Below are positions 2,961 to 31,763 of a stretch of 64,000 nucleotides of DNA, piece after piece. Position 1 is the stretch's first letter. Every line of letters begins with the position of its first letter. The DNA comes from an uncultured Ignavibacteria bacterium (lineage in GTDB: Bacteria; Bacteroidota; Ignavibacteria; SZUA-365). Location: NCBI GenBank assembly GCA_913061095.1, contig CAJXVM010000022.1, positions 7,845 through 71,844 of the forward strand. The letters run 5' to 3'. Both the position numbers and the translations under genes were made by a program. The notes beneath the pieces are model-generated. The model had not been told where the DNA came from. It saw only the letters and a list, made by a program, of their open reading frames with translations, and did not search any database.

Positions 2961-3366
2961 TCCAGCCACCCGGATCGCATTGTGATGAATCGGGACAGCG
3001 ATGCATCCGAATTTTTCACATGCTCGTCCGATTATCCTTGCGGGGAATCCGAATGATTCCCATCTTTGCAGAAGGCCCGGAAGAGGCTGAAAGTTCAAAG
3101 AATTGCAGGACTTATGTACCGCCAGTACAGCAGACATACCATCCCTCACGCGGCACATGGCGCGGACGCTGTGGCGACGGTGAATGACCGCTGCCGCACG
3201 CGCTCGCGGAAAATCCTGCAGTTCAAACACTACTGCACCGACGCCCCCATCTGACCCGCCCTCCTCCCCGCTTCGACTCGACATTCGTCGAATTTCATAC
3301 TTCAGATAAACAGCAAGTTTCATCAGAAAAGCGCGGCACCACGGTGCCCGACAGGAGTACGCAGAC

Positions 3367-4287
3367 GTGAAAGCACAAGATTTCCTTACCGTGCGCGACA
3401 TGAGCCAGGAGGAGATCCTCCAGACATTCGACATCGCCCTCGACATGAAGGCCGACCGCATGAAATACGGCGAAGCGCTGAAGGGCGAATCCCTCGCACT
3501 GATTTTCGAAAAACCCTCGCTGCGCACGCGCACCACGTTCGACATCGGCATCCAGCAGCTCGGCGGCTACTCGCTGTACCTCTCGCCGAATGAAATCAAT
3601 CTCGGCAAGCGCGAGTCGGTGTACGACGTCGCCAAGAATCTCGAGCGCATGGTGCAGGGCATCATGATCCGCACCTTCGCGCATCAGATCGTCATCGACA
3701 TGGCCGAATTCGCGTCGATTCCCATTATCAACGGACTGACGGACTACACGCATCCCTGCCAGGCGATGGCCGACTTCCTCACGATCAAGGAACACAAGGG
3801 CGACTTCAAGGGACGGAAGCTCTGCTACGTCGGCGACGGCAACAACGTGGCGCACAGCCTGATGTTCGCCGGCGCGCGACTCGGCATGGACGTCACCGTC
3901 GCCTGTCCGCAGGGCTACGAGCCGAATCTCATCGCCTTCCAGCAGGCCGTTGAGGATGCGAAGGCCACCGGCGCGACGATTTCCGTCGTGCATGACGCCG
4001 CCGAGGGTGTTAAGGATGCCGACGCGGTGTACACCGACGTGTGGGCGTCGATGGGACAGGAAGCCGAGGCCGCCGAACGCCGCCGCATCTTCCTGCCGTA
4101 CCAGGTCAACGAAGACCTGATGGCGAAGGCCAAGAACGACGCCATCTTCATGCACTGCCTGCCGGCGCATCGCGGCGACGAGGTCACCGACGGCGTGATC
4201 GACGCCCCGAACTCTGTGGTCTTCCCCGAGGCCGAAAACCGCCTGCACGTGCAGAAAGCCATCATGTATCAGCTGATGAAAAAGTAA
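3367..4287 (+). CDS. argF: Ornithine carbamoyltransferase
   Basis: STRTR carbamoyl-phosphate motif, HPCQ and HCLPAHRGDEVTD ornithine-binding motifs; 306 aa. Confidence 0.9.
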   Translation: MKAQDFLTVRDMSQEEILQTFDIALDMKADRMKYGEALKGESLALIFEKPSLRTRTTFDIGIQQLGGYSLYLSPNEINLGKRESVYDVAKNLERMVQGIMIRTFAHQIVIDMAEFASIPIINGLTDYTHPCQAMADFLTIKEHKGDFKGRKLCYVGDGNNVAHSLMFAGARLGMDVTVACPQGYEPNLIAFQQAVEDAKATGATISVVHDAAEGVKDADAVYTDVWASMGQEAEAAERRRIFLPYQVNEDLMAKAKNDAIFMHCLPAHRGDEVTDGVIDAPNSVVFPEAENRLHVQKAIMYQLMKK

Positions 4288-4297
4288 GAGGCGCCTG

Positions 4298-5242
4298 ATG
4301 TCCCGTACAGCACTGATTGCCATCGGCGGGAATTCCCTGGTCCGCGCGGGCGAGCGCGGCACCGTCGGCGAACAGCTCGCCAACGCGCACGCCACCGCCC
4401 GCAGCCTCGCGGCTATGGTCAAGCGCGGCTGGCGCATCGTCATTACGCACGGGAACGGTCCCCAGGTGGGGGCCGCCCTGCTGCGCTCCGAGCGCGCCGC
4501 AGGTGAGGTGTACACCCATCCCCTGGATGTGTGCGTGGCCACGACGCAGAGCGAAATCGGCTACCTGCTGCAGCGCGCCATGGAGTACGAACTGCGGCAG
4601 CTCGGCCTGACCACGCCGGTGCTTACCGTCCTCACCCAGGTGCGCGTGGACGCCGACGACCCGGCGTTCACCAATCCCACCAAGCCCATCGGTCCGTTTT
4701 ACTCGAAAGAGGAAGCCGAGCAGAAAAAACGCTCGCTGGGATGGGACGTCGTCGAAGACAGCGCCCGCGGCTGGCGGCGCGTGGTTCCCTCGCCGGAGCC
4801 GAAGGAGGTGTTCGAACAGCATATCATCCGGCATCTGCTGGATGAGGGCATGATCGTCATCGCATGCGGCGGCGGCGGGATTCCCGTGATCGAACATGAG
4901 GACCACCGCGTGGAGGGATCCGAGGCGGTGATCGACAAGGACCGCGCATCGGCCCTGCTTGCCGCCGAACTGGGAGTGGACCTGTTCGCCATCAGCACGG
5001 ACGCGCGGCAGGTGTATGTCGACTTCAAGAAGCCCACGCAGCGCGGACTCGACCGCGTGACCGTCGGTGAACTGCAGACGCTCGCCGACGAAGGACAGTT
5101 TCCGCCGGGCAGCATGGGGCCGAAAGTGGAATCCGCCATCCGCTACCTGCGGAACGGCGGGAAGGAAGTCATCATCACATCCTTCGAATATCTCAACGCC
5201 GCCCTCGACGGGAAGGACGGCACGCACATCACCGCCGAATGA
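4298..5242 (+). CDS. arcC: Carbamate kinase
   Basis: N-terminal IAIGGNSL ... ITHGNGPQVG motif and overall collinearity with the carbamate kinase / amino-acid kinase family; 314 aa, 10 nt after argF. Confidence 0.88.
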   Translation: MSRTALIAIGGNSLVRAGERGTVGEQLANAHATARSLAAMVKRGWRIVITHGNGPQVGAALLRSERAAGEVYTHPLDVCVATTQSEIGYLLQRAMEYELRQLGLTTPVLTVLTQVRVDADDPAFTNPTKPIGPFYSKEEAEQKKRSLGWDVVEDSARGWRRVVPSPEPKEVFEQHIIRHLLDEGMIVIACGGGGIPVIEHEDHRVEGSEAVIDKDRASALLAAELGVDLFAISTDARQVYVDFKKPTQRGLDRVTVGELQTLADEGQFPPGSMGPKVESAIRYLRNGGKEVIITSFEYLNAALDGKDGTHITAE

Positions 5243-5281
5243 CCGACTTACGCATGTAGCACAGGCAGCGCGAGAAGCACA

Positions 5282-6199
5282 ATGAAACTCAATCACGTCG
5301 TCGAATCCCAGCAGTTCACCGTTCCCCTGCTCATGGAGCTGTTCGAGCGGACGAAATCCATGGAGCGCACCGTGCGCCGCGGCGGCACGCGCGACTACGA
5401 ACACGCCATCATGGGCACGCTGTTCTACCGTCCCTCGACACGCACGCGCTTCTCCTTCGAGTCCGCCATGTACCGTCTCGGCGGCCGCGTGCTTTCCACC
5501 GAGCATGCGATGGAGTTCTCCTCGGAAGTTGCGGGTGAAAAGCTGGAAGACACGATCCGCATCATCGGGCATTACTGCGACGTCATCGTCCTCCGGCACC
5601 ACGAGGAAGGCGGCGCCAAGCGCGCCGCGGCCGTATCCCCCGTCCCCGTCATCAGTGCCGGCGACGGCACGGGCGGTCAGCATCCGACGCAGGCGCTGCT
5701 CGACCTCTACACGATTTACCGCGAATGCCACACGCTCGACGGCCTCTCGGTGGCACTGATCGGCGCGCTGGACCAGGGACGCACGGCGCGTTCGCTGGCG
5801 TACCTGCTCGGCAAGTTCGACCGCACGAAGCTGTACTTCATCGCGCCCGAGGAAATGCAGATCAAGCCCGACATCCTCGAATACCTCGAGAAGCACGGTG
5901 TGTCATACGAGCTGGCATCCGACACGCGGGACATCATCTCGCACGTCGACGTCGTTTACCAGACGCGCATCGACCGCGAGCGGCTGGCCAGCAAGGACAT
6001 CGACCTGACCCCGTACAACATCGACCGGGCGGTGCTCGAAAAGATGCGCTCCGACGCCATCATCATGCACCCGCTGCCGCGGTCGGTGGAGATCGATCAC
6101 GCCGTGGACGATGACACGCGCGCGGCGTATTTCCGGCAGACACAGAACGGACTCTACGTACGCATGGCATTGCTGACCATGCTGCTTGACAACGAATAA
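5282..6199 (+). CDS. pyrB: Aspartate carbamoyltransferase catalytic subunit
   Basis: PSTRTRFSFESAM, HPTQALLDLYTI, YQTRIDRERL (Asp-binding RxQxER) and MHPLPR motifs; 305 aa. Confidence 0.8.
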   Translation: MKLNHVVESQQFTVPLLMELFERTKSMERTVRRGGTRDYEHAIMGTLFYRPSTRTRFSFESAMYRLGGRVLSTEHAMEFSSEVAGEKLEDTIRIIGHYCDVIVLRHHEEGGAKRAAAVSPVPVISAGDGTGGQHPTQALLDLYTIYRECHTLDGLSVALIGALDQGRTARSLAYLLGKFDRTKLYFIAPEEMQIKPDILEYLEKHGVSYELASDTRDIISHVDVVYQTRIDRERLASKDIDLTPYNIDRAVLEKMRSDAIIMHPLPRSVEIDHAVDDDTRAAYFRQTQNGLYVRMALLTMLLDNE

Positions 6200-6235
6200 C
6201 AGATTTTCATTCACCCTTTCAATCGCAGGTGATGC

Positions 6236-7432
6236 ATGAACACACAGGAGTATATCGCCCTCGAAGAAGCGTACGGCGCTCATAATTATCATCCGCTTGA
6301 CGTCGTCGTCAGCCGCGCGGAAGGCGTCTGGGTATCCGACGTCGACGGCAACCGGTACCTCGACTGCCTCGCGGCCTATTCCGCGCTGAACCAGGGGCAC
6401 TGTCATCCTGCCATCCTCAAGACGTTCATCGAGCAGGCGGCATTCGTGACGCTGACCAGCCGCGCATTCCGCAACGACCGGCTGCCGCTGCTCTACAAGA
6501 AGCTGCACGACATGACCGGCTACGACATGTCACTGCCCATGAACTCGGGCGCCGAAGCCGTGGAGACTGCGATCAAGACGGCGCGCCGCTGGGGCTACGA
6601 CGTGAAGGGCATCCCGGAGAACAAGGCCGAGATCGTCGTGGCGTCGGGAAACTTCCACGGCCGCACGACCACCATCGTGGGCTTCTCCGACGATCCGTCC
6701 TCATACAGGGGCTTCGGTCCCTACTGCACCGAGGCATTCCCGATGCACGAGTACGGGAATCTCGAGGATTTGAAATCCAAGATCACCGAAAACACCTGCG
6801 CCGTGATGATCGAGCCGATCCAGGGCGAGGGCGGCGTGGTGATTCCGCCGGACGGCTATCTCAAGGGCGTGGAACAGCTCTGCCGCGAGAACAACATCCT
6901 GTTCCTGTGCGACGAGATTCAGTCCGGCCTCGGCCGCAGCGGCAAGATGTTCGCGCATTACTACGAGAACGTGCGTCCCGACATCGTCATCATCGGTAAG
7001 GCGCTGTCCGGCGGCTTTTATCCCGTCTCCGCGATTCTCGCTGACCGCTCCGTGCTCGGTGTGATCCATCCCGGCGAGCATGGGAGCACCTTCGGCGGCA
7101 ATCCGCTCGGTGCCGCGGTTGCGATCCGCGCGCTCGAGGTCATCGAGGAGGAGAACCTCATTGAGAATTCCGCGGAGCTCGGTGCATACATGACCGACCG
7201 CCTGCGCGCGATCGATTCGCCGCATATCACGGAAGTGCGTGGCCGTGGCCTTTGGATCGGTCTTGTACTGGATACGAAAGCGCGTCCGTACACCGAAGCC
7301 CTGAAGGAGGAAGGTATTCTCTGCAAGGAGACACATGAGAACATCATCCGTTTCGCGCCGCCGCTCATCATCACGAAAGACATCATCGACTGGGCGCTCG
7401 AGCGCATCGAAAAAGTTCTGACTTCGAAATAA
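6236..7432 (+). CDS. rocD: Ornithine--oxo-acid aminotransferase (class III PLP aminotransferase)
   Basis: YGAHNYHPL N-terminus and the PLP-lysine region IVIIGKALSGG; 398 aa. Confidence 0.82.
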   Translation: MNTQEYIALEEAYGAHNYHPLDVVVSRAEGVWVSDVDGNRYLDCLAAYSALNQGHCHPAILKTFIEQAAFVTLTSRAFRNDRLPLLYKKLHDMTGYDMSLPMNSGAEAVETAIKTARRWGYDVKGIPENKAEIVVASGNFHGRTTTIVGFSDDPSSYRGFGPYCTEAFPMHEYGNLEDLKSKITENTCAVMIEPIQGEGGVVIPPDGYLKGVEQLCRENNILFLCDEIQSGLGRSGKMFAHYYENVRPDIVIIGKALSGGFYPVSAILADRSVLGVIHPGEHGSTFGGNPLGAAVAIRALEVIEEENLIENSAELGAYMTDRLRAIDSPHITEVRGRGLWIGLVLDTKARPYTEALKEEGILCKETHENIIRFAPPLIITKDIIDWALERIEKVLTSK

Positions 7433-7471
7433 ACATTTTTCTGTCCCACCAACTGATCAATGGAGTGATCC

Positions 7472-8806
7472 ATGGCAGCCAAGAAAGAACGCATTACCAC
7501 GATCATCGTCGGCGCCGCCGGCCGTGATTTCCACAACTTCAACATGGTCTACCGCGACAACGACCTGTACAATGTTGTGGCCTTCACGGCGGCGCAGATT
7601 CCCGACATCGCCGGACGCAAGTATCCCGCCTCCCTCGCCGGCAAGCTCTACCCCAGAGGCATTCCCATCGTGGACGAAGCGGACCTCGAAAAACTGATCG
7701 TGAAGCATGACGTCCAGGAAGTCGTCTTTTCATACAGCGACGTTCCCTACGATCACGTGATGAGCATCGGCGCGCGCGCGACGGCAGCCGGTGCACATTT
7801 CAAAATCCTCAGTGCGAAAGACACCATGATTCCGAGCAAGAAGCCGGTCGTGTCGGTCACGGCAGTGCGCACGGGAAGCGGTAAAAGCCAGACCACGCGC
7901 AAGGTCGCGGATATTCTGCAGGAGATGGGCTTCAAGGTCGCGGCCATCCGCCACCCGATGCCCTACGGCGACCTCGCCAAGCAGAAAGTGCAGCGCTATG
8001 CATCCATCGCCGATCTGAAAAAGCACAAGTGCACGATCGAGGAGATGGAAGAGTACGAGCCGCACATCGTCAACGGCACGATCATCTACGCCGGCGTGGA
8101 CTACGAGGCCATTCTCGAGAAGGCCGAGAAGGAAGCCGACGTGATTCTGTGGGACGGCGGTAACAACGACATGCCGTTCTACAAACCTGACCTGAACATC
8201 GTCGTCGCGGATCCGCTGCGCGTCGGTGACGAACTCGAGTACTATCCCTCCGAAGCGAACCTGCGCATGGCCGACGTGGTTGTGATCAACAAGATCGACA
8301 GCGCCGATCCGATGATGGTGCTGCAGCTGCGTGAGAACATCCGCAACGTGAACCCGAAGGCGCGCATCGTGGATGCCGCGAGTCCGCTCATCGTCGAGCG
8401 CGGCGAGCAGATCACCGGCAAGCGCGTGCTGGTGGTCGAGGACGGTCCGACCCTCACCCACGGTGAGATGGACTTCGGCGCCGGTACCGTTGCGGCCGAA
8501 AAATACGGCGCCGCGGATCTGATCGACCCGCGTCCCTACGCCGTCGGCACGATCAAGAAGACCTTCGAGACCTATCCGGATATTGGCGTCCTGCTGCCGG
8601 CCATGGGCTACGGCGACCAGCAGATCAAGGATCTCACCGCGACGATCAACAAGGTGCCCTGCGACCTCGTGGTCATCGGCACCCCGATCGACCTGAAGCG
8701 CGTGGCCAAATTCAAGAAGAAAGCCGTGCGCGTGCAGTACGAGCTGCAGGAGATCGGCGAGCCCAGTCTGAAGACGCTGCTCGACGAGTTCACGCAGAAA
8801 CTCTGA
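7472..8806 (+). CDS. P-loop NTPase of the cyclic 2,3-diphosphoglycerate synthetase-like family (tentative)
   Basis: 444-aa ORF with a Walker-A-like TGSGKSQTTRKV motif. It is the last gene of the argF-arcC-pyrB-rocD operon (39-nt gap). The family assignment is from memory and is uncertain. Confidence 0.45.
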   Translation: MAAKKERITTIIVGAAGRDFHNFNMVYRDNDLYNVVAFTAAQIPDIAGRKYPASLAGKLYPRGIPIVDEADLEKLIVKHDVQEVVFSYSDVPYDHVMSIGARATAAGAHFKILSAKDTMIPSKKPVVSVTAVRTGSGKSQTTRKVADILQEMGFKVAAIRHPMPYGDLAKQKVQRYASIADLKKHKCTIEEMEEYEPHIVNGTIIYAGVDYEAILEKAEKEADVILWDGGNNDMPFYKPDLNIVVADPLRVGDELEYYPSEANLRMADVVVINKIDSADPMMVLQLRENIRNVNPKARIVDAASPLIVERGEQITGKRVLVVEDGPTLTHGEMDFGAGTVAAEKYGAADLIDPRPYAVGTIKKTFETYPDIGVLLPAMGYGDQQIKDLTATINKVPCDLVVIGTPIDLKRVAKFKKKAVRVQYELQEIGEPSLKTLLDEFTQKL

Positions 8807-8866: not shown

Positions 8867-8938
8867 AGGGGCTGAACCATCCGGCTCCACATCCCGTTGA
8901 ATAGATATGGGAGTTGTTCAACAGACGAGGTGCCGAGC

Positions 8939-11080
8939 ATGACAGACAAGCACGAGCAGGAGCACGAGCACGATGCTCACGACACGTCATCCCGACTAGG
9001 CCGAAGCGAGGACGCTGGCAAAGAGAGTGGATATGCAGAGGCCGTATCGAGGGACGGCGGCCACGATCACGACGGCGGCCACGATCACGACGGCGGCCAC
9101 GATCACGACGGCGGCCAAGACCACCAGTCGCATCACGCGCACATGGCACGGGATTTCCGGCTGCGCTTTTTCATTTCGCTGGGACTGACGCTTCCCATCC
9201 TCTTCCTCGCGCCGATGATACGCGAGTTTCTCGGTCTCGGCGCGCTGACCTTCACGGGCGACCGCTACGTGCTGTTCGGTCTCTCCACCATCGTGTATTT
9301 CTACGGCGGCTGGCCCTTCCTGAAGGGACTCTACGACGAAATGCGCGAACTGAATCCGGGCATGATGACGCTCATCGGACTCGCGGTGACCGTGGCCTGG
9401 GTGTACAGCAGCGCCGTGGCGTTCGGACTCGAGGGACGCACCTTTTTCTGGGAGCTGGCGACGCTGATCGATATCATGCTGCTCGGTCACTGGATCGAAA
9501 TGCGATCGGTCATGGGCGCCTCCCGCGCGCTGGAAGAACTGGTCAAGCTCATGCCCTCCGAGGCGCATCGCATCACCGACGGCGGCGACACCGAGGATGT
9601 GCGCATCGATGAGCTCGAAAAAGGCGACGTCGTGCTGGTCAAGCCCGGTGAGAAAATTCCCGGCGACGGCAGCGTGGTCGAAGGACACAGCGCGGTGGAT
9701 GAGTCGATGATCACCGGAGAGTCCGTTCCCGTCGAAAAACAGGAAGATGACGACGTCATCGGCGGATCGGTCAACGGCGACTCCTCGCTGAAAGTGCGCA
9801 TCAGCAAAACCGGGGAGGATTCCTACCTGTCGCAGGTGGTCGAACTCGTGCGCAGTGCGCAGGAGAGCAAGTCGCGCGCCCAGTCGCTCGCCGACCGCGC
9901 CGCGAAATGGCTGACCATCATCGCGATCAGCGCGGGACTCATCACGCTGGCCGCCTGGTGGCTGGCCGCCGGCAGCACTTTCGTGTTCTCGCTCGAACGC
10001 ATGGTCACCGTGATGGTCATCACCTGTCCCCACGCGCTCGGACTCGCCGTGCCGCTGGTCGTCGCCGTGAGCACGGCGCTCTCGGCGCGCAACGGACTGC
10101 TGCTGCGCGACCGCCGCGGCTTCGAACGCGCCCGGGAAGTCAGCGCCATTCTCTTCGACAAGACCGGCACGCTCACCGAAGGCAGCTTTGGCGTTTCGAA
10201 TGTCGTGCTGTTCGATGACGGCATGGACCGCGACGAACTCATCCGCATCGCCGCGGCCGTGGAGTCGGAGAGCGAGCATCCCATCGCGCGCGCGATTGCC
10301 GAGGAAGCGGAAGAGCATCCGTCCGTGAAGGATTTCTCCGCCATTCCGGGCAAGGGCGCAAAGGGTGTGGTGGATGGAAAGGACGTGCTCGTCGTCAGCC
10401 GCGGTTACATGAAGGAGAACGACATCGCGTATGACGCCGACGCGGTCAGTGAGGATGCCGATGCCGGCAAGACACTGGCGTTTGTCGTTATCGACAACGA
10501 GGCGAAGGGCATGATCGCACTTGCCGACCGCATCCGCGAGGAGAGCCGGGAGGCCATCGCGAAACTGAAAAACATGGGCATCGAATGCCGCATGCTCACG
10601 GGCGACAACGAGAAAGTCGCCGAGTGGGTCGCCGGTGAACTGGAGCTCGATGAATTTTACGCGGACGTCCTTCCCGACGAGAAGGCGGACATCGTCAAGA
10701 AAGTGCAGGATGAAGGTCACGTGGTGGCGATGACGGGCGACGGTGTCAATGACGCGCCCGCGCTGGCCACCGCGGATGTCGGCATCGCCATTGGTTCGGG
10801 AACCGACGTCGCCGCCGAGACCGCGGATGTGATCCTCGTCAACAGCAGTCCGATGGATGTCGAGCGCGTGATCGCCTTCTCGAAGGCCACGCACAAAAAG
10901 ATGATTCAGAATCTTTTCTGGGCGACGGGATACAACGTCTTCGCAATCCCGCTCGCGGCCGGCGTGCTCGCGTGGACGGGCATCCTGCTGAGTCCAGCCG
11001 TGGGTGCGGTCCTGATGTCCATGAGCACCGTCATCGTCGCCATCAATGCGCGCTTCCTTTCCGTGGATGAATCGGAGTGA
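8939..11080 (+). CDS. copB: Heavy-metal (copper) translocating P1B-type ATPase, CopB-like
   Basis: His-rich N-terminus (GGHDHD x3), CPH transmembrane motif ([12 protein letters not shown]), DKTGTLT phosphorylation site, [12 protein letters not shown] hinge. GAGGTG ribosome-binding site 8 nt upstream of the ATG at 8939; the ORF-track start at 8897 is probably too far upstream. Confidence 0.85.
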
Positions 11081-14101: not shown

Positions 14102-17100
14102 ATGAGAACCGTGTTCCGATCGACTGCTTCCCTTCTCATCGGCCTGATCTGCTCTTCCGTCATGTTTGCCCAGTCCACCTGGGAACAGCAGCCCACCGCG
14201 CTGCCGTCGAATCCCACCACCTTTGTGCAGGTGGGCGGACTCTGGGGCATCGCGATGACGGATACGGGTACGGGCTTCGCCGCGGGCTATGCCTCTGTGT
14301 CGAACGGCTTCTCGGGTGTGCTGCGCAAGCTGCCGGGAAATCCGACGTGGTTCGTGCTGCCGGCGTCGAGCTTCAGCGGACTCGCGGCGAGCCACAGCCT
14401 GTGGTCCGGCGTGAGCGCGGTCGGCACGCATGCGTGGGTCTGCGGTTCGAACGGCCGCCTGTACAGAACCACGGACAACGGCACCACCTGGAACGCCGCC
14501 ACGACGGGTATGACCGGAACGAACTCGCTGTTCGATGTCTTTTTCAAAAGCCAGACCGAGGGCATGGCGGTCGGCGACGACGGCACGATGTATTACACGT
14601 CGAACGGCGGCGCGAACTGGACAGCACAGACGCTGCCCGGCACCGTGCCCGCCACCACGCGCCTCTATGCCGTACACAGCGCGGGCGCGAACTGGTATGT
14701 CTCCGGTGCCGCGGGAACGTTCATGCGGGGAACGCCTGCGACATCCTCGACGAGCTGGGTGGATCTGAGCGCGAACCTCCCGGCGCTCGGCGACATCGAG
14801 GGCGTGCAATTCCTCGACAACCTGACCGGCACGGTGAGCGGCGCTACGGTCGGCGGCTCGGCCATCTATCGCACGACGAACGGCGGCAGCAGTTTCACGG
14901 CGATCGGCAGCGGACTGCCGACGGGACAGGATTACAAGACGCTGCACTTCTTCACCAGCGCACACGGGTGGACGGGCAACTCCTCCGGTCCGCTCTACGA
15001 AACCACGAACACCGGGCAGAACTGGAATTCCCGCAACACCACGACGCTGCCGAGCCAGAACCTCAGCGGATGGCTGACGCGCGTCGACTTCCCTTCGGCG
15101 GGCATCGGCTATGCCAGCGGCGGCGCGCCGGGCACGTCTTCGCTCGGCTGGATCCTTCGCTACGACACCCCCCTCGTGCCCGATATTTCAAGCACACCGA
15201 CGAGCCTCGACTTCGGTACGGTGGAGTGCGACACGACCACTACCGAGCAGTTTACGATCGAGAACACGGGCACGGCGAACCTGACGATTGCGTCCATCAC
15301 CTTCAGTGCACCGGAGTTCACGCTGGCATCCTCACTGCCAACGCCCATCCCCCCCTCCGGCGGGGCCACGATCTCGGTGCGATGGACACCCGCGCAGGCG
15401 GGATCCATCCCCCCGAACACGACGATGACCATCGCGAGCAACGATCCCTCGAACCCCACCTGGACGGTGGACCTGAGCGGCACCTATAATTTCGGGACCT
15501 TCGGGATCGGCACATCCTACAGCTTCAGCGACGCCTGCGTGGGCGACTCCTCGGATGTCGTCGTGAACGTGACGGTCACAGGCAACCTCTCTCCCGAGCT
15601 GATCAGCTTTCAGCATGTGAGCGGTGACGACAACGTCGAGCTCTCTTCACCCGCGCTGGGGACGACGATCTCGGGATCCACGCAGCTCGTCTTCCGCTTC
15701 AAGCCGTCGAGCGGCGGCGCGATGAACGGCGTGTATCGCCTCGTGTACGGGAATCCGTCCTGTCCGCGTTCGGTGGATATCACCTTCACCGGCACCGCGT
15801 ACAACGCGGCGCTGTCGCTGAATCCCCCCATCGTGGATTTCGGGGATGTCTGCGCCGGGGAGATAAAAACGCTCGAGGTGACCGTGACGAACAACGGCAC
15901 GACCGATGGCGTGATCAGTCTGCGGCAGTTCGCGGGCGGGAAGGACGCCTTTCCGAATATGCACCCGACGCCGTTCGGACCGATTCCGCCCGGGCAGAGC
16001 CGGCAGTACACGGTGCGCTTCGCGCCGGGCACGAATGACACGGGAAACATCGAAGGCATCTACCGGCTGATCGTCGATCCGTGCAAGGACACACTGATGC
16101 TGACGCTGCGCGGACGCGGTGTCAGTCCCGCGGTGAGTTTCATCCCCACGACTGTTCTGGCCATCGGTCCGACCGGCACGGGACAGATCATCGACGAACC
16201 GGTGCAGATCAACAATGACGGGAACAGTGCCGTTACCATCACATCCATCACACTGAATCCACCGCACCCGCGGCTGACGCTGCGGAACCTGCCGGTGCTT
16301 CCGCTTGTGCTGCCGGCCGGGCAGAGCACGTCCGTGACCGTGCGTTTCGCTCCCGACCGGCCGGAGCAGATCACCACGAAGCTCTGCGTTCACTGGAGCG
16401 ACCCGTGTGCAGACAGTTCCTGCCTCGCCGTGGGTGCGACCAGCGGCGAGTCGCCCGCCATCGCAGTGGACACGGTACATGACGTGGGGATTCAGCGCTG
16501 TGCGACCCCGCTTCTGGACACCCTGATGGTGTACAACACGGGCAAGGGCACGCTGACACTGCGCGGCTTTTCGCTGGGCGGCGCGAATCCCGCGCATTTC
16601 AGTGTCGTGTCGCCGTCGGTGCCGCATGCCGTCAATCCCGGCGATTCCGTCGCCGTGGTACTGTCGTATGACGCACCGGCGAACGGCAGCAGTTCCGCCG
16701 TACTGACGATCGAACACAACGATGCGAATGCAGGGCTGCTGACCGACGTCGCGCTCACCGGCGAGCGGCGCACCGTGCGGTTTGCGGTCGAGGGAGATAC
16801 GACAACGGCCTACGTCTCCTGTGCGCATGTCGGGAAAACCCGCACGCTGAGTATCCGCAATCAGGATCCGGATCCGCTGGAGATTCGGGATATCAGCGTG
16901 ATCGACGGCTCTGATGTTTTCCATGTCGCCAGCACACCGCTGCCCGCCTCGGTGCCGGGGGGATCGGCGCTGAGTTTCGAGGTCAATTTCACGCCCACGG
17001 GGAAAGGGATATTCACGGGAGTGCTGCGCATCACGGCGGGACCATGTCCCGACACGTACCTCGTGGCACTGCGTGGCGAGGGAAATATCACCGAGCTGTC

Positions 17101-20100
17101 GTTCTCGCCGAGTCCCGTCGATTTCGGCGCGGTGATGATCGGGAGTCCGGCGACGCGCACGGTGCGCGTCGGCAATACCGGCAGTGCCCCGCTGCGGATC
17201 ACCGGCGCGTTTCTGCAGGCGGGCGCTATCGGTATGAGCATCCTTTCCCCGCCGGCCTATCCGGTCACGGTGGGCGGCGGACAGTTCCAGGAATTCACGC
17301 TTCGCTTCGATCCGGCGTCGGTGCAGACCGTGCTGTCGAGCTTCTGTGTGACCGTCGAGGCGCCCTGTCCGGATACCCTGTGTGTAAACGTGAGCGGACG
17401 CGGGGCCTCCACCGGCGTCGGACTCACGCGCACGAGCATCGAGTATCAGCTCGATCCCTGCTCAGCGGACGAGCGCTGTGATTCGGTGCGCATTGTCAAC
17501 AACGCCGGTCAGAATGTGGAAATCCGCGATGTACGCATCGAACCGCCGGGCGGGTTCCGTATCGAGATGGCGCGCACGCCGCCCTTCACACTGAACAGCG
17601 GTGTGTCGGCGGATGTGCGCATCTGTGCGATCGGGGATTTCACCGGCAGCCGCACCGCCGGCCTGGTCGTCGAGAGCGACGATCCCAACACGCCGCTGCT
17701 TCGCATGCCGCTCACCGCGCGGCGGGATTCATCGGGCTTTGTCCTTGCGGAGGACAGCCTCGATTTCGGCGCCATTGCGGACTGCCAGATCGGCGTCTCG
17801 CGGCTGGTGACGCTGACAAACACCGGCACGCTGGCGGAGTTCATCGATACGCTGCGCGGCTCGGATGCCTTCCTCGTGACGACGAATCTGCCCGTCGCGG
17901 TGCAGGCCAGCGGACTGACACAGGTGCGCATCACCTTTGATCCCCCCGGCTACGGGGTGTTTACCGACACGCTGTATTTCACCAGCGCCCGCTGCGGCAT
18001 GCGTATGCCGATGATCGTGCGCGGCGCGTACCATGAGACCAATTATTCTGTTTCACCCGATCCGCTTGCGTTTGGTGACCTCGCAGTTGGCAGCAGCGAT
18101 ACGCGGAACCTGACGCTGGAGAATCTGCATCTCCCGAGCGTGCGCATCGCTGATGTGCGCATCGAGCCCGTGGGAACGGCCTTCGCCTCGTGGGGGGCGT
18201 ATCCGAAGACAGTCTCCGCCGGTAACGCCACTGATCTGCCAATTCTCTTTAATCCGCAGGTACCCGGTACGCACAGCGCCACGGCGTGCATCATCATCGA
18301 TTTGCCCTGCCGTGATACTATCTGTGTGGATCTGACAGGCGGCACTTCCGAGGCGCTGATCACGGCCGATCCCGACACGCTGCGCTTCGGCGACGTGGCG
18401 CAGTGTGCGGAACTGCGCGACACGGTGCTGATCCGAAACAACGGCAATGACCCCGTGACCCTGACCGCGGCACAGCTCAGCGGCGCGGATGCGGCACTGT
18501 TCCTTCTGGTCAATCCACTCACATCCCCCGTGACTCTTGCCGCGCAGGAGGGGCACGCATTCGTCGTGCAGACCGTCACCGTCACCGCACCGGCCGACGG
18601 TGCGAAGCAGGCGGAACTGCTGGTGGAAACAGATAACAGCTCGCAATCGGAATTGCGCATTCCTGTCGTCATGCAGCGGGTGACGCTGCAGATGCCTGAT
18701 GACGTTGTGGTGGACTTCGGTCCGGTGCTCGTCGGCGGTCAGTATCCCCGCACGCTGCAGTTCCTCAATGCCGGTTCTCAGCGCATCGATTTCCGTACGG
18801 CAGACCTTCCCATCGATCTGCAGCTCGACACGCCGCTCCCGCTCGTGGTTGATCCGGGTATGCGGGGCAGTATCGATATCGTCTTCGCACCCACGGCCGC
18901 CGGCGCATACCTCGACACGCTTATTCTCAGACACATCGGTCAGTGCGAGGCAGAATTTCGCATCATCATTCGCGCGAACGTGCGCGAAAGCATCAGCGCG
19001 GACAATCTGGATTTCGGCGTCGTGCCGAATTGCCGCTCATCCCGCACCGTGACCAGTATTCTGAACAGTCTCGATGAGGATGTGACGATTGCTGCCGTGC
19101 GCATTGAGGGATCGGATGCGTCATTCTTCCGCATACTTCAGCCGGCGGATTTTCCCGTTTCGATTGCATCCGGCAATACGCTCACGGTGGAGGCGGAACT
19201 GACGCCGGCTGTGCCATCCGCCCGCATCTACACAGCCGAGGCGGTGTTCACGATACCGTTCGGACAGGAGACGCGGGAATTCCGTATCCCGATGACCGGC
19301 GAGAGCAGCGACATCGCGCTGACGCCGGCCACCGCGACGGATTTCGGCGACATCACGATCGAGAGCGTGTCCATGCCGCTGACGCTGACCCTGCGCAACG
19401 AGCATCCGTTCCCGGTCCGGGTCACCGACATCTCCGCCAGTCCGCAGGAATTCGCTGTCGGGTCCGTCACCCCTCCGCTGCCGGCGGATGTGGCGCCCGG
19501 GGCAGCGCTTCTTGTTGACGTCACATTTGCGCCGACACAGGTGGGCGATGTCACCGGCGCGCTCACGCTCGTGTACAGCGAGCCCTGTGAGCAGACGAGC
19601 GACATCTTGCTCAGAGGACGCGGCGTCGATGACCGCCTGCGAACGGGACTGCGCATCGAAGCGCATGAGGGCCGCGTTGACGACATCATTGACGTGCCGA
19701 TTCTGCTGACCGGGAGTCTCGGTGGGGCCGACGTGCGATCCTGGCAGGGTGGCATCCGCTTCAACCGAACGATGCTCTATCCGCTCGAGCTGATCGGTGA
19801 GGGGACACTGTCCTCTGACATGTCTCTCGAAATGACATGGGACGGCGCTGAGGGCGTCCTGTCAATCTCCGGTTCCGGTGGAGCCCTGCAGGCCGGGGCC
19901 GGCGCACTTTCCATCGTGCGCTTCCAGGTGCTCGTCGGCGATGCGCTGAACACCGCCCTTCAGATCGATCCCGGTTTCGCGTTCACCAGCGGGCGCGCCA
20001 TGGTTGAATCCCGCACTGACGGCAGCTTCACACTCATTGATTTCTGTGACGCCGACGGCGTGCGGCTCGTGCGCCCGCAGCCCGTTGCAAAGCTGACCGC

Positions 20101-20353
20101 ACAGCGCCCCAATCCATTCAGCACGCGCACGGTTATCGAATACGATCTCACCGCCGATGGGCGAGTGCGCCTGTCGTTGTTCGACCGGATGGGACGTGAA
20201 ATCGCGGTCCTCGTTGACGAACCGCAGACGGCCGGCGCGCATCGCAGCGTTCTCGAGGGCGCTCGCCTCGCACCGGGCATCTATTTTATCGTCCTGCGCA
20301 GTCACGGTCACACCGCCGTGGAGAAAATCATGCGCCTCGACGAACGACGCTGA
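14102..20353 (+). CDS. Giant T9SS-secreted surface protein: BNR-like β-propeller, about 12 Ig-like (ASH / choice-of-anchor-D-like) modules, cohesin-like domain, T9SS C-terminal sorting domain
   Basis: 2083 aa. Signal peptide, then BNR-like motifs (TTDNGTTWN, TSNGGANWT, TTNGGSSFT, TTNTGQNWN). About 12 modules of ~120 aa each begin with a DFGxV motif and end with PCxDT...L.G. A cohesin-like segment (FNRTMLYP) precedes a C-terminal T9SS sorting domain (NPFSTRTVIEYDL...GIYFIVLR). Confidence 0.85.
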   Translation: MRTVFRSTASLLIGLICSSVMFAQSTWEQQPTALPSNPTTFVQVGGLWGIAMTDTGTGFAAGYASVSNGFSGVLRKLPGNPTWFVLPASSFSGLAASHSLWSGVSAVGTHAWVCGSNGRLYRTTDNGTTWNAATTGMTGTNSLFDVFFKSQTEGMAVGDDGTMYYTSNGGANWTAQTLPGTVPATTRLYAVHSAGANWYVSGAAGTFMRGTPATSSTSWVDLSANLPALGDIEGVQFLDNLTGTVSGATVGGSAIYRTTNGGSSFTAIGSGLPTGQDYKTLHFFTSAHGWTGNSSGPLYETTNTGQNWNSRNTTTLPSQNLSGWLTRVDFPSAGIGYASGGAPGTSSLGWILRYDTPLVPDISSTPTSLDFGTVECDTTTTEQFTIENTGTANLTIASITFSAPEFTLASSLPTPIPPSGGATISVRWTPAQAGSIPPNTTMTIASNDPSNPTWTVDLSGTYNFGTFGIGTSYSFSDACVGDSSDVVVNVTVTGNLSPELISFQHVSGDDNVELSSPALGTTISGSTQLVFRFKPSSGGAMNGVYRLVYGNPSCPRSVDITFTGTAYNAALSLNPPIVDFGDVCAGEIKTLEVTVTNNGTTDGVISLRQFAGGKDAFPNMHPTPFGPIPPGQSRQYTVRFAPGTNDTGNIEGIYRLIVDPCKDTLMLTLRGRGVSPAVSFIPTTVLAIGPTGTGQIIDEPVQINNDGNSAVTITSITLNPPHPRLTLRNLPVLPLVLPAGQSTSVTVRFAPDRPEQITTKLCVHWSDPCADSSCLAVGATSGESPAIAVDTVHDVGIQRCATPLLDTLMVYNTGKGTLTLRGFSLGGANPAHFSVVSPSVPHAVNPGDSVAVVLSYDAPANGSSSAVLTIEHNDANAGLLTDVALTGERRTVRFAVEGDTTTAYVSCAHVGKTRTLSIRNQDPDPLEIRDISVIDGSDVFHVASTPLPASVPGGSALSFEVNFTPTGKGIFTGVLRITAGPCPDTYLVALRGEGNITELSFSPSPVDFGAVMIGSPATRTVRVGNTGSAPLRITGAFLQAGAIGMSILSPPAYPVTVGGGQFQEFTLRFDPASVQTVLSSFCVTVEAPCPDTLCVNVSGRGASTGVGLTRTSIEYQLDPCSADERCDSVRIVNNAGQNVEIRDVRIEPPGGFRIEMARTPPFTLNSGVSADVRICAIGDFTGSRTAGLVVESDDPNTPLLRMPLTARRDSSGFVLAEDSLDFGAIADCQIGVSRLVTLTNTGTLAEFIDTLRGSDAFLVTTNLPVAVQASGLTQVRITFDPPGYGVFTDTLYFTSARCGMRMPMIVRGAYHETNYSVSPDPLAFGDLAVGSSDTRNLTLENLHLPSVRIADVRIEPVGTAFASWGAYPKTVSAGNATDLPILFNPQVPGTHSATACIIIDLPCRDTICVDLTGGTSEALITADPDTLRFGDVAQCAELRDTVLIRNNGNDPVTLTAAQLSGADAALFLLVNPLTSPVTLAAQEGHAFVVQTVTVTAPADGAKQAELLVETDNSSQSELRIPVVMQRVTLQMPDDVVVDFGPVLVGGQYPRTLQFLNAGSQRIDFRTADLPIDLQLDTPLPLVVDPGMRGSIDIVFAPTAAGAYLDTLILRHIGQCEAEFRIIIRANVRESISADNLDFGVVPNCRSSRTVTSILNSLDEDVTIAAVRIEGSDASFFRILQPADFPVSIASGNTLTVEAELTPAVPSARIYTAEAVFTIPFGQETREFRIPMTGESSDIALTPATATDFGDITIESVSMPLTLTLRNEHPFPVRVTDISASPQEFAVGSVTPPLPADVAPGAALLVDVTFAPTQVGDVTGALTLVYSEPCEQTSDILLRGRGVDDRLRTGLRIEAHEGRVDDIIDVPILLTGSLGGADVRSWQGGIRFNRTMLYPLELIGEGTLSSDMSLEMTWDGAEGVLSISGSGGALQAGAGALSIVRFQVLVGDALNTALQIDPGFAFTSGRAMVESRTDGSFTLIDFCDADGVRLVRPQPVAKLTAQRPNPFSTRTVIEYDLTADGRVRLSLFDRMGREIAVLVDEPQTAGAHRSVLEGARLAPGIYFIVLRSHGHTAVEKIMRLDERR

Positions 20354-22720: not shown

Positions 22721-25700
22721 TTGCACAAATCTATTCCGAGGAAACGTTGTATGGCACGCCTCGTCCCTCCTGTATTATCCTTTCTATTCGTTCTGACCCT
22801 CATCGCTCCCTCGCATGCACAGACCGGCAAATGGCAGGAAATGAGCATGTCTGGCAAGGTCTCGCACATCCTCGACATGGATATGGCGGATGAAAACTTC
22901 GGCATCATGGTCACCGAGCCGGATATCGCAAATGATCTGTCCGGTATCATGTTCACCACGAACGCCTGGAACAGCTTCTCGGTTGTGACGGCAGATTCAC
23001 CGATTTTCGTACCGAGCCTGCCCGACTGGGCGCGTTTCCGGGCGGTCGACGTCCTGAACACCAACCGCGCCTACATCGTCGGCGACAGCGCGCTCGCATA
23101 TGAGACATGGGACGGCGGAAGGACGTGGCATCAGATGGTCGTGGAATGGGATACAACTCTGTACCAGACACCTCCGACGTTTCACGACGTGCATTTCATC
23201 CACGCGCTTGAGGGTATCATCGTTGGAGGCGACGGCTTCGAGGCAAATCAGACAGGAGGAGAATTCCATTTCGCCGACGTGTACGTCACAACGACAGCGG
23301 GATTCACATGGGACGAGATGAAGGTGCCCTCACAATACCTTCTCGCAGGGATCGGTGCCCTGCTTACCGTGGATTACGCTGGAGGGAAATATATCATGGG
23401 AGGGGAATACGGACTGCTGCTGGAATTTGACGGCGCGGGAAACTTCACACCGATATACCCGGTCAGCAAATCGCTCATCAGTAATTATTTCTTCACCGAT
23501 ATTTCCATGGCATCGGCGACGGATGTCTACATCGTCGGACAGAACGCGACATCGCAGGCACCGGTCGCGTACAAATCCATCCTCAACGGTTCGCGATATG
23601 TCAACATGGTACCCGGAAGTCTCCCGTTCGGCGTCGACGGCATGTGGCAGGTGGATTTCCTCACACCCGACCGAGGCATGATCGGTGCGGGGATGCATTA
23701 CATCGGTGTCACCGCCGACGGCGGCTACAATATCACGCCACACTCGGTCGGAATCAATCCTCCGCGGACACCTATGACCGCGCTGAAGATGGTCGGTCCG
23801 CAGAAAGGATTCGCCTGCGGCGGAGATACAGCCGCAAACGTCGGCTGGGTGATTGAATTTTTCGGCGTACCTCCCGAGGCCGATATCTCAACGACGGATA
23901 CGAAAATCACTTTCCCGACCATCAGCTGTGAGCGTTCCGTCGATGGAGGCATGTGGCTGCGCAGCAGCGGTTCCGGGGAGCTGCAGATAACCAAAAACGA
24001 CATCACGTTTTCACCGCCGGAATATGAGATCGTCAACGACCACATCTTCCCGCTCAACATGAGACCGGGTGTGGACATAGAGCTGATCGTGCGCTGGACA
24101 CCGTCACAGAGTTATTCCGGCACGCAGGTGGGAACGATGACCATCCGCAACAACGATCCGGACAACAACCCATGGACGGTGCAGCTTGAGGGGACGCGCA
24201 ACCATGGGTCGCTGGATTTCCTCAGTGAAATGTTCCTCTCCTACGGCACCTGCCTGAAGGATACAATGGAATACCAGATCCCGGTAATGGCCACGGGCAA
24301 TCAGGATCCGCAATTCATCGGGATGGAATTCGTTTCGGGTGATGATGACTTCGACCTCCTCGAGCCGGCGCCCGGAACGCTGGTGCAGGGAGCGGAGACA
24401 TTCACGTTCATCTTTGCGCCGCAGGATAGTGCGCTGCGCCGCGGTGTGTATCGCTTCATTCACGGAGATCCGTCATGTCCCGACACCACAAACGTGGCGC
24501 TCAGTGGGATCGGCCATCTCTCCGTCATCGCCGCATCATCCGATACCATCGATTTCGGGGAGATCTGCCACGGCGAGGTGAAGGACACAACCATTACACT
24601 GCAGAATTTCGGAAACACTTTCGCTTCCGTCTCGGGATTGGAGCGATCAAGCGGCGACCCGGGATTCTCGACGACGATATACGGCATGATCCTTCGACAG
24701 GACAGCAGTAAAACCTACACGCTTCGCTTCAACCCACTCAGTGCCGGAGACTTCGAGGGCACTTACGTCCTTCGTTACGGTCCGTGCCAGGACTCGCTCG
24801 TGTTCCACTTCACGGGCAAAGCACTCGAAACAACCGTTGAGTTCGATCCGAAGAGCCCGGTGCGCATCGGACCGATATTCGCAAACCGCACGGCCGGACA
24901 GACGATCACGATCACCAATTCCGGTGATACGCCGGCGCGTCTGACGTCGCTTGGCTTCAGCAAGCTGCTGCCGCCGCTGCAGATCGTCAATCGTCCCGCA
25001 CTGCCCATGACGCTTCTGCCGAGTCAGAGTACATCTGTGACGCTGCGCTTCGCGCCCGTCGACATCGGTGAGTACAATACATCGATCCTGTTGGAATGGG
25101 ATGCCCGCTGTCCCGACAGCGCCGAAGTGGAAATCAACGCCATCTGCATTCCCAATCCACAGATCGATCCCCCCGCTTCGGCGGATCTGGGAACACAGCG
25201 CTGTCCCACCCCGTTGCGAGATACGGTCATAATCCGCAACAGGGGAAACGGTCCGCTGGTCTTCTACAGCATATCCGTCAGCGGTCCCGACCGCGATCAT
25301 TTCCGCGTGATCTCACCGGTCATTGACGACACTGCCGCACCGGCGAGCGATTTTCCGATGATTGTCGAATTTGACCGTGACACGGAAGGACGCAGTCACG
25401 CCATCGTGCGACTGACGCACAATGACAAGGATGCCGGGCTCACCGACATCGACGTGACGGCCAACCGGACGATCGCGGAATACATTGTCGAGGGGGATTC
25501 CACGACGGCGTTCTTCACACGCCTGTTCGTAGCGGAGAACCGTTCATTCGTGATCCGGAACAACAGTAACGAGGATGTGACGATCACGGATCTTACCGTG
25601 GTGAACGACGCCTCCGTATTCAGCGTGCAGCCGCTGCAGCCGCTGCCTGTACTGCTGAAACCGAATCAAACACTTGGTTTTGATGTCACATTCACACCGA

Positions 25701-31393: not shown

Positions 31394-31763
31394 ATGGCCG
31401 GGCCTGAATAATGAGGAAATACACTCTCTCGAATCAGAAAAACGGCGAAACACCTCGAACGGGACAACGGGAGGCACCCTTTTTCGCCGCATTTACAAAA
31501 ATACAAAAAACGGGAGGCGCTGTCAACGTAATAGTTGACGATATGCCTGAAATCCCATATATTGCGGGACACCCCTCTTTTCTCTTTTCCGTTTCCGACG
31601 CTGTTTTTCGCTGATTATCAAGCATTTGAAGCGCCTGCAGCAGACCTCTGCTTCATCCATGTTTTTGATTTCAACGGGCATTTTGACAATTTCAGGATAC
31701 CGTTGTCGCATTTGAATGCGACACGACGCCATCCAACCGCCATCCAGACCAAGGAGTTCCCGT

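Follow-up and report, generated by a model that had tools for sequence, protein, structure and literature searches.

The closest described system to the locus reported here is the arginine synthetase pathway of the archaeon Thermococcus kodakarensis, in which TK2200, annotated as a 'hypothetical protein / putative GTPase', was found through its co-occurrence with arcC in genomes without arcA and proved to be the arginine synthetase ArcE (Michimori, Yokooji and Atomi, PNAS 2024, PMC11032458). ArcE catalyzes the reaction Arg + ADP + Pi <-> Cit + NH3 + ATP, with a Keq of about 10 towards citrulline, and both its activity and the pathway have been established biochemically and genetically in T. 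kodakarensis, where the ornithine produced is a proline precursor (PMC11032458). The occurrences of ArcA and ArcE complement each other, and arcE homologs, which are present in Bacteroidota and Acidobacteria, lie near arcB/arcC in some genomes (PMC11032458). Genetic work in the same archaeon has since shown that arginine-derived carbamoyl phosphate (CP) supplies the pyrimidines: arcE and arcB knock-outs are pyrimidine auxotrophs, and a knock-out of arcC, the carbamate kinase (CK) gene, has little effect (Front Microbiol 2026, PMC13260591). Here we describe five adjacent genes at positions 3367-8806 of a 64-kb stretch of DNA from an uncultured Ignavibacteria bacterium (contig CAJXVM010000022.1; the whole stretch is called the window below). 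They encode an ornithine carbamoyltransferase (OTC), a CK, a paralog of the aspartate carbamoyltransferase (ATCase) family that we call ATC', an ornithine aminotransferase (OAT) and a predicted member of the ArcE family. The locus is, in our judgment, probably a bacterial arginine synthetase pathway operon (arcB-arcC-ATC'-rocD-arcE) that works catabolically, distributes CP and stands behind a regulatory leader.

The sequence that we read comprises the window and about 10 kb past its end. All five open reading frames (ORFs) lie on the + strand, separated by gaps of 10, 39, 36 and 39 nt, and a terminator scan returned no + strand terminator-like site between them. The first, arcB/argF (3367-4287), begins with a GTG start that is backed by alignment to relatives and encodes an OTC of 306 aa (TIGR00658, 404 bits against a cut-off of 281; OTCace_N and OTCace domains). 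Its translation carries the motifs SLRTR, HPCQ, DVWASMG (DxxxSMG) and HCLP, and it is of the short ArgF type, passing PRK00779/TIGR00658 and failing the long-form OTC models. It is followed by arcC (4298-5242), encoding a CK of 314 aa (TIGR00746, 383.5 bits against 358.25; AA_kinase domain PF00696), by the 305-aa ATCase-family catalytic-chain paralog (5282-6199; TIGR00670, 288 bits against 237) and by rocD (6236-7432), encoding an ornithine-oxo-acid aminotransferase of 398 aa (TIGR01885, 545 bits against 378) that scores 346 with the argD model TIGR00707, under its cut-off of 410. The last gene, at 7472-8806, encodes a P-loop protein of 444 aa that homology to archaeal members, fold neighbors and gene context place in the arcE family. 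Upstream on the same strand are the ORF of a leader peptide (3114-3254), recognized by an ORF at the same position in relatives and by their common C-terminus, and a 112-nt spacer (3255-3366) that opens with a C-rich, G-poor tract and carries AGGAG upstream of the GTG start. No arcA-type arginine deiminase was found among the annotated window genes or in the 10 kb beyond, carAB was not seen in either part, and the 10 kb past the window end hold no arg, pyr or car genes.

An earlier note on this DNA had described 3367-8806 as a four-gene operon of argF, arcC, pyrB and rocD. Those four co-directional genes and the gaps between them are real, and all four identities hold, each exceeding its curated family cut-off; rocD, however, ends at 7432, and the fifth gene, 39 nt after it, had been overlooked. 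The motifs quoted in support (HPCQ, HCLP, HPTQ and HPLPR) are present except that 'RxQxER' reads RIDRER, with Asp at the position of E. coli Q231. OAT does offer the exit for ornithine that was proposed there.

The fifth gene carries most of the interpretation. Its protein matched no NCBIfam or Pfam family above threshold, giving weak cobW/HypB matches only; its sole sequence match in the Protein Data Bank (PDB) was a marginal one to cyclic 2,3-diphosphoglycerate (cDPG) synthetase (E = 0.008), and its homologs are publicly annotated as 'predicted GTPase' or 'cyclic 2,3-diphosphoglycerate synthase', with 'GTPase' the only name given to distant cluster representatives. Among archaeal proteins, it has 50% identity over 433 aa to a homolog from Hyperthermus butylicus and 45% to a Thermoproteota homolog, in whose family Pyrodictium, Ignisphaera and Desulfurococcaceae are represented. 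All of 25 aligned homologs carry the Walker A motif GSGKS unchanged. An AlphaFold2 model (predicted local distance difference test score 79, predicted template modeling score 0.80) retrieved cDPG synthetase (8oru/8ork) at ranks 1-2 and LpxK (4ehx/4itn/4ehy) at ranks 3-5 in Foldseek, with an identity of only 14% in the fold alignment to cDPG synthetase. The published description of TK2200 is much the same: homologs of about 440 aa annotated as hypothetical or putative GTPase, a predicted fold resembling LpxK 4EHY, weak similarity to cDPG synthase and, among Desulfurococcales, carriers that include Hyperthermus, Pyrodictium and Desulfurococcus (PMC11032458). Through this transitive link to TK2200, the evidence strongly supports assignment of 7472-8806 to the ArcE family of arginine synthetases, or ATP-forming arginine deiminases, and the labels 'GTPase' and 'cDPG synthase' should be corrected to that family. 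The statement in the earlier note that the window holds no arginine deiminase thus holds for arcA-type enzymes in its annotated part but not for function, as the fifth gene would belong to the non-homologous, ATP-forming deiminase family.

Homologs 63-91% identical to this protein occur across Bacteroidota, Acidobacteria, Chloroflexota, Spirochaetes, Marinimicrobia, Zixibacteria, Firmicutes and other groups. In the family as a whole, members from distant bacterial phyla share 63-75% amino acid identity with one another and 45-50% with Thermoproteota, and about 150 columns are invariant in the 25 aligned sequences. Such exceptional conservation points to very strong constraint, to frequent lateral transfer or to the two combined.

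From the gene identities, we infer the following enzyme activities and net direction of flux. ArcE would convert arginine, ADP and Pi to citrulline, NH3 and ATP; OTC would phosphorolyze citrulline to ornithine and CP; and CK would transfer the phosphate of CP to ADP, giving ATP and carbamate. Part of the CP would be diverted by the ATCase paralog, most simply to carbamoyl-aspartate for pyrimidines. OAT would turn ornithine into glutamate semialdehyde/pyrroline-5-carboxylate and hence proline or glutamate, and its removal of ornithine would also pull the near-equilibrium pathway forward. Control of the operon would probably fall to the translated 46-aa leader, by an arrest-type nascent-peptide mechanism. 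A catabolic direction has its precedent in T. kodakarensis; it is also hinted at by the peptidases, TonB receptors and ADP-forming acetyl-CoA synthetase encoded in the window, and rocD-type OATs are typically catabolic. It would further suit the prediction, made for metagenome-assembled genomes (MAGs) of a Kapabacteria relative, that canonical arginine and proline biosynthesis is missing (PMC6338057).

This arrangement bears directly on the earlier proposal that the CK may act anabolically, supplying CP to both transcarbamylases in a locus devoid of a deiminase. Because the operon contains a deiminase equivalent of the ArcE family, which would complete a pathway like that of arginine deiminase, the argument for an anabolic CK falls away. 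The archaeal precedent invoked for a CK acting as CP synthetase is itself weakened by the knock-out phenotypes in T. kodakarensis cited above. What survives is the idea of a common CP pool, which is probably shared by the ornithine and aspartate-type transcarbamylases; its origin in CK is not supported.

The module is far from being a peculiarity of one contig. The clustered set of OTC, CK, ATC', OAT and ArcE genes occurs in more than 40 independent loci from several phyla, so the clustering is more than chance, and it takes two gene orders. The order found here, OTC-CK-ATC'-OAT-ArcE, is that of genomes of the Fibrobacteres-Chlorobi-Bacteroidetes (FCB) group: it recurs in a 5.46-Mb Bacteroidota genome, a complete Kapaibacterium genome and several metagenome contigs, and also in Ignavibacteriaceae and Acidobacteria MAGs and a MAG labeled Hyphomicrobiales. 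The alternative order, ArcE-OTC-CK-ATC'-OAT, was found in 27 soil and peat loci. Five further contigs with unrelated flanks hold a three-gene core, leader-OTC-CK-ATC', without OAT or ArcE nearby. Identity of the module genes between phyla is 60-90%, and the module looks laterally shared. Overall, ArcE adjoins CK in 33 of 81 genome loci across many phyla, often with OTC adjacent too. In Bacteroidales MAGs, a canonical pyrB-pyrI pair comes directly after arcE and in the same orientation (loci L049, 2527-5400, L067, L072 and L078), or pyrB lies about 5 kb downstream of it (L035 and L045). Because these Bacteroidales pair arcE with a canonical pyrB-pyrI, the ArcE-ATCase link has arisen at least twice.

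Several neighborhoods deserve mention in their own right. The argS gene lies divergently upstream of arcE in L035, L045, L049 and L078. The operon of Kapaibacterium CP058732.1, otherwise conserved, has an insertion between rocD and arcE, namely a gene of glycoside hydrolase family 3 (L005, 12131-13180). In 12-13 soil-type loci of the ArcE-first order, OAT is followed on the same strand by an NfnAB/SudAB-like pair, consisting of a PyrK-like FAD/NAD protein and a GltD-like NADPH oxidoreductase (L116, 9180-10079; L127, 10088-11536). A longer co-directional series, (aldehyde dehydrogenase)-ArcE-CK-(CCA-adding enzyme)-SucC-SucD-2-oxoglutarate:ferredoxin oxidoreductase-(NDK, PlsX, FabG), recurs in Marinimicrobia, Zixibacteria, KSB1, Calditrichaeota and Nitrospina; the loci are L015, L018, L022-L025, L027-L030, L050, L074, L082 and L086. 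We considered it as a dedicated fermentation operon together with NDK and dropped the idea: it also holds CCA-adding enzyme, PlsX, FabG and DusB genes and is probably a housekeeping neighborhood, which provides no evidence for direction.

The best PDB match of the ATCase-family gene is Arabidopsis PYRB 6ypo (320 bits, 55% identity), and a second ATCase model, NF002032, scores 260.6, just below its cut-off of 263; no pyrI partner is present in the cluster. In a neighbor-joining tree, the operon-embedded sequences form one clade within the ATCase family, beside plant-type and L144-type enzymes and well apart from pyrI-adjacent pyrB genes and from OTC, and this clade occurs only inside these operons. 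The possibility raised in the earlier note that phylogeny would reclassify the pyrB-like gene as another transcarbamylase is therefore borne out only in part: the gene does group with ATCases, but it belongs to a derived subclade whose aspartate-site residues are altered. Surveying 121 clade members (E. coli numbering), we found the CP-binding residues S52, T53, R54, T55, R105, H134, Q137, P266 and L267 invariant or nearly so and R167, R229 and R234 invariant. Around them, the window protein shows the changes E50->R, K84->A, D162->A, K164->D and Q231->D. Position 84 is E in 64 members, K in 28, Q in 12 and A in 10; position 231 is D in 109 of the 121; and position 50 is K or R. Soil-type paralogs have E at position 84 and R or L at 231, and a 57% relative (L034) has R at 84 and E at 231. 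The clade also carries a one-residue insertion before HPTQ (DGxGGQHPTQ). Relatives outside the operons (L144, Arabidopsis and pyrI-adjacent pyrB) keep the canonical E50, K84 and Q231. K84 and Q231 are important for aspartate binding and catalysis in the E. coli enzyme, so the paralog is either an ATCase whose aspartate site has been rewired or a neofunctionalized transcarbamylase.

The second of these options would change one step and leave the rest of the pathway as we propose it: the paralog would be a transcarbamylase for another acceptor, or would act phosphorolytically on another N-carbamoyl compound and so feed CK. The clade is monophyletic, it has replaced K84, Q231, E50, D162 and K164, all of which are kept in its non-operon relatives, and the leader-OTC-CK-ATC' core can stand without OAT or ArcE nearby, all of which speak for a new function. 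Against this, the paralog exceeds the TIGR00670 equivalog cut-off and shares 55% identity with a plant enzyme that is a proven ATCase; the whole CP site and the two arginines that bind carboxylate groups (R167 and R229) are kept throughout; the gene context yields no candidate alternative substrate; and the canonical pyrB-pyrI beside arcE in Bacteroidales supports a genuine functional link between ArcE and ATCase. On balance, we hold neofunctionalization to be possible but doubtful, and we retain carbamoyl-aspartate as the simplest predicted product in the pathway outlined above.

Upstream of arcB, the leader at 3114-3254 encodes 46 aa from its ATG (MYRQYSRHTIPHAAHGADAVATVNDRCRTRSRKILQFKHYCTDAPI-stop); if translation began at an in-frame TTG at 3066, the peptide would have 62 aa. 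Gene calls in relatives place an ORF of 44-46 aa just upstream of arcB, and 13 distinct versions from 18 loci range from 44 to 56 aa, with variable, unrelated N-termini and about 18 conserved residues at the C-terminus (consensus [KST][TS]R[AS]xKIxxF[KRQ]HYx[TN]DAP[IV]-stop). Further copies lie at L003 7680-7817 and L005 7918-8052 and in L073, L089, L090, L093-L097, L099 and L100; none was found upstream of L009 or L012. Entropy at the three codon positions is 0.65/0.42/1.34, pairwise comparisons count 557 synonymous against 330 non-synonymous codon differences, and each of the three stop codons occurs among the copies. Because variation concentrates at third codon positions, it is the peptide, not an RNA motif, that is conserved. 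The leader contains a single invariant Arg and no run of Arg codons. It matches no Pfam family and no Rfam entry, and our search of the literature on arginine-related bacterial arrest peptides returned nothing that matches it.

The spacer between leader and arcB varies from 47 to 171 nt across loci. Its start is rich in C: in the L088 copy, from a contig 99-100% identical to the window, 20 of the first 45 nt after the leader stop are C and 6 are G, and 13 loci summed give 127 C against 57 G. No + strand intrinsic terminator was found in this spacer, and minimum-free-energy folds of 11 spacers revealed no shared hairpin, for which reasons we dropped a classical terminator/antiterminator attenuator. 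Nor was any Rfam leader or riboswitch found upstream of arcB or in nine soil-type loci. We infer, by analogy with TnaC and SpeFL, that the leader may be a nascent-peptide sensor that induces the operon, and the base composition of the C-rich spacer would be compatible with a role like that of a Rho utilization (rut) site. If the leader is indeed an inducing sensor, it would favor an inducible, catabolic role for the genes that follow.

Soil-type operons do not carry the leader and have instead a conserved element, TCACA-N6-TGTGA-N6-GCACNGC ... GAANATA, about 60 nt upstream of arcE (L116, at about 3490-3530, L121, L125, L126, L128, L138 and others). The copy in L123 shows one compensatory change (TCACG...CGTGA). 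The element has no Rfam match, and its form could be that of a Crp/Fnr-like operator or of a small hairpin.

Several observations count against a catabolic arginine synthetase pathway at this locus. The membership of the fifth gene in the ArcE family is transitive, reaching TK2200 by way of other archaeal homologs. ArcE, OTC, CK and OAT are all reversible, OTC thermodynamically favors citrulline synthesis and the ATCase paralog lacks K84 and Q231, so its substrate or direction may differ. Neither arcD nor another arginine/ornithine antiporter was found among the annotated window genes, and arcD was likewise not found in the 10 kb beyond. ArcE itself, with a Keq of about 10, is reversible (PMC11032458).

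Reversibility opens the way to the opposite proposal, in which the same enzymes would form an anabolic hub for arginine and pyrimidine synthesis independent of carAB and argGH. CK would make CP from carbamate and ATP, OAT would form ornithine from glutamate semialdehyde, OTC would give citrulline, ArcE would make arginine from citrulline, NH3 and ATP, and the ATCase paralog would lead to pyrimidines. Read in this direction, the five genes are a coherent biosynthetic set; the OTC passes the short-form models PRK00779/TIGR00658 and not the long-form ones, and neither arcA nor arcD is among the annotated window genes. Every step can run backwards, ArcE makes arginine in vitro and, when given citrulline, in vivo, and a biosynthetic role has been raised for organisms without argininosuccinate synthase and lyase (PMC11032458). 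The kinetics and genetics point the other way: the Ks of ArcE for NH3 is millimolar (PMC11032458), anabolic CK activity needed extremely high ammonium and bicarbonate, and in T. kodakarensis, the only organism tested genetically, CK is not the source of CP (PMC13260591). The leader, with its one invariant Arg, also lacks the run of Arg codons typical of a classical biosynthetic attenuator, and a module shared laterally between phyla at 60-90% identity fits an accessory function better than a sole housekeeping route. The usual catabolic role of rocD-type OATs adds to these points, and taken as a whole we judge the anabolic hub unlikely.

A classical arcABC cluster with its arcA elsewhere and an unrelated GTPase or cDPG synthase as fifth gene, for which the public family names, the weak cobW/HypB matches and the weak cDPG synthetase match can be cited, is very improbable given that similarity to true cDPG synthetase is marginal in sequence and 14% in the fold alignment, that the fifth-gene family is tightly linked to arcC and arcB across phyla in a way that, with the published description of TK2200 homologs, fits ArcE, and that ArcA and ArcE occur in complementary fashion (PMC11032458).

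The remaining features of the region are outside the module. A copper-type P1B ATPase gene (8897-11080) follows arcE on the same strand after 90 nt and encodes a His/Asp-rich N-terminal repeat (DGGHDH, three to four times); it is not conserved beside the operon in relatives. A 183-aa membrane protein at 2409-2960 was considered as a module member and rejected, being confined to the closest relatives. Two giant ORFs on the + strand, one of 2083 aa (14102-20353) and one of 2008 aa (22721-28747), likely encode surface proteins. A 700-aa acyl-CoA ligase of the ADP-forming acetyl-CoA synthetase type lies at 31716-33818 and a fragment of a multiheme c-type cytochrome at the window edge (2-1123, - strand); this pair hints at an amino-acid- or peptide-fermenting, possibly metal- or nitrite-respiring lifestyle. 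Just past the window end, a HipA/HipB-type toxin-antitoxin module (L150, 11104-12590; HipA_C, Couple_hipA and HTH_31) adjoins an MscS gene.

The description of ArcE dates from no earlier than 2024, and its study has been confined to one archaeon; this locus shows that its gene also exists in a widely conserved bacterial operon form, spanning the FCB group and Acidobacteria-like soil bacteria. In this form, a predicted ATP-forming arginine deimination is coupled physically to CK, an ATCase paralog and OAT. The arrangement undercuts the inference that a carbamate kinase without arcA must be an anabolic carbamate kinase, and it bears on CP supply in bacteria without carAB. Literature searches on COG2403, and on carbamate kinase together with Ignavibacteria, found nothing, those on arginine auxotrophy in Ignavibacteria and on I. 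album yielded nothing useful, and both the leader peptide, a candidate amino-acid-sensing leader outside Proteobacteria, and the ATCase subclade confined to these operons appear to be undescribed. A more speculative combination, which we put forward tentatively and only as a whole, is that the leader is a new arrest peptide sensing arginine, citrulline or ornithine that switches on the ArcE operon, perhaps through concealment of a C-rich entry site for Rho, that the ATCase subclade is neofunctionalized and that the module is the sole CP source in genomes without carAB.

Compared with the T. kodakarensis pathway (ArcE TK2200, ArcB TK0871 and ArcC TK2158), the locus shares a P-loop enzyme of the ArcE family, an OTC and a CK, and the metabolic logic matches: arginine would yield ornithine, a proline precursor, and CP, which in turn would give ATP and pyrimidines. 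In the archaeon, however, the genes lie scattered over the genome and the pyrBI genes are of the canonical kind, whereas here the pathway genes form one bacterial operon to which an ATCase paralog and an OAT have been added. The FCB-group operon is also preceded by a conserved leader, and the activity and direction given for the bacterial enzymes are predictions. The classical arginine deiminase operon arcABC(D) of Pseudomonas aeruginosa and Halobacterium salinarum is similar in organization, in obtaining ATP from citrulline through OTC and CK and in its net outcome, with arginine ending as ornithine, NH3 and CO2. It differs in that the annotated part of the window has neither an arcA-type hydrolytic deiminase nor arcD and contains the extra ATCase paralog and OAT, and in that deimination here is predicted to be ATP-forming, for 2 ATP per arginine. 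The CK-like carbamoyl phosphate synthetase proposed for Pyrococcus furiosus and P. abyssi likewise places a CK with CP-consuming transcarbamylases. That proposal relies on activity at very high concentrations of ammonium and bicarbonate, and the genetics of T. kodakarensis did not bear it out (PMC13260591), whereas the ArcE gene here offers a CP source derived from arginine.

Two parts of the locus have their own closest counterparts. For the ATCase paralog, the nearest solved relative is Arabidopsis PYRB (6ypo), a plant-type, PyrI-independent ATCase that is 55% identical over its full length, has identical CP-binding motifs and, like the paralog, has no regulatory chain; the operon clade differs from it in E50->K/R, a variable K84, D162->A, Q231->D/R and the insertion before HPTQ, and the paralog is encoded inside an operon of arginine-catabolic type. 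The leader resembles TnaC (tryptophan), SpeFL (ornithine) and the fungal arginine attenuator peptide in being a short upstream ORF directly before amino-acid-metabolism genes, with a conserved C-terminus, a variable N-terminus, a Pro near the stop and a C-rich spacer after it. It has no recognizable sequence similarity to any of these peptides and shares with them the layout of a short peptide placed at the entrance to the genes of amino acid metabolism.

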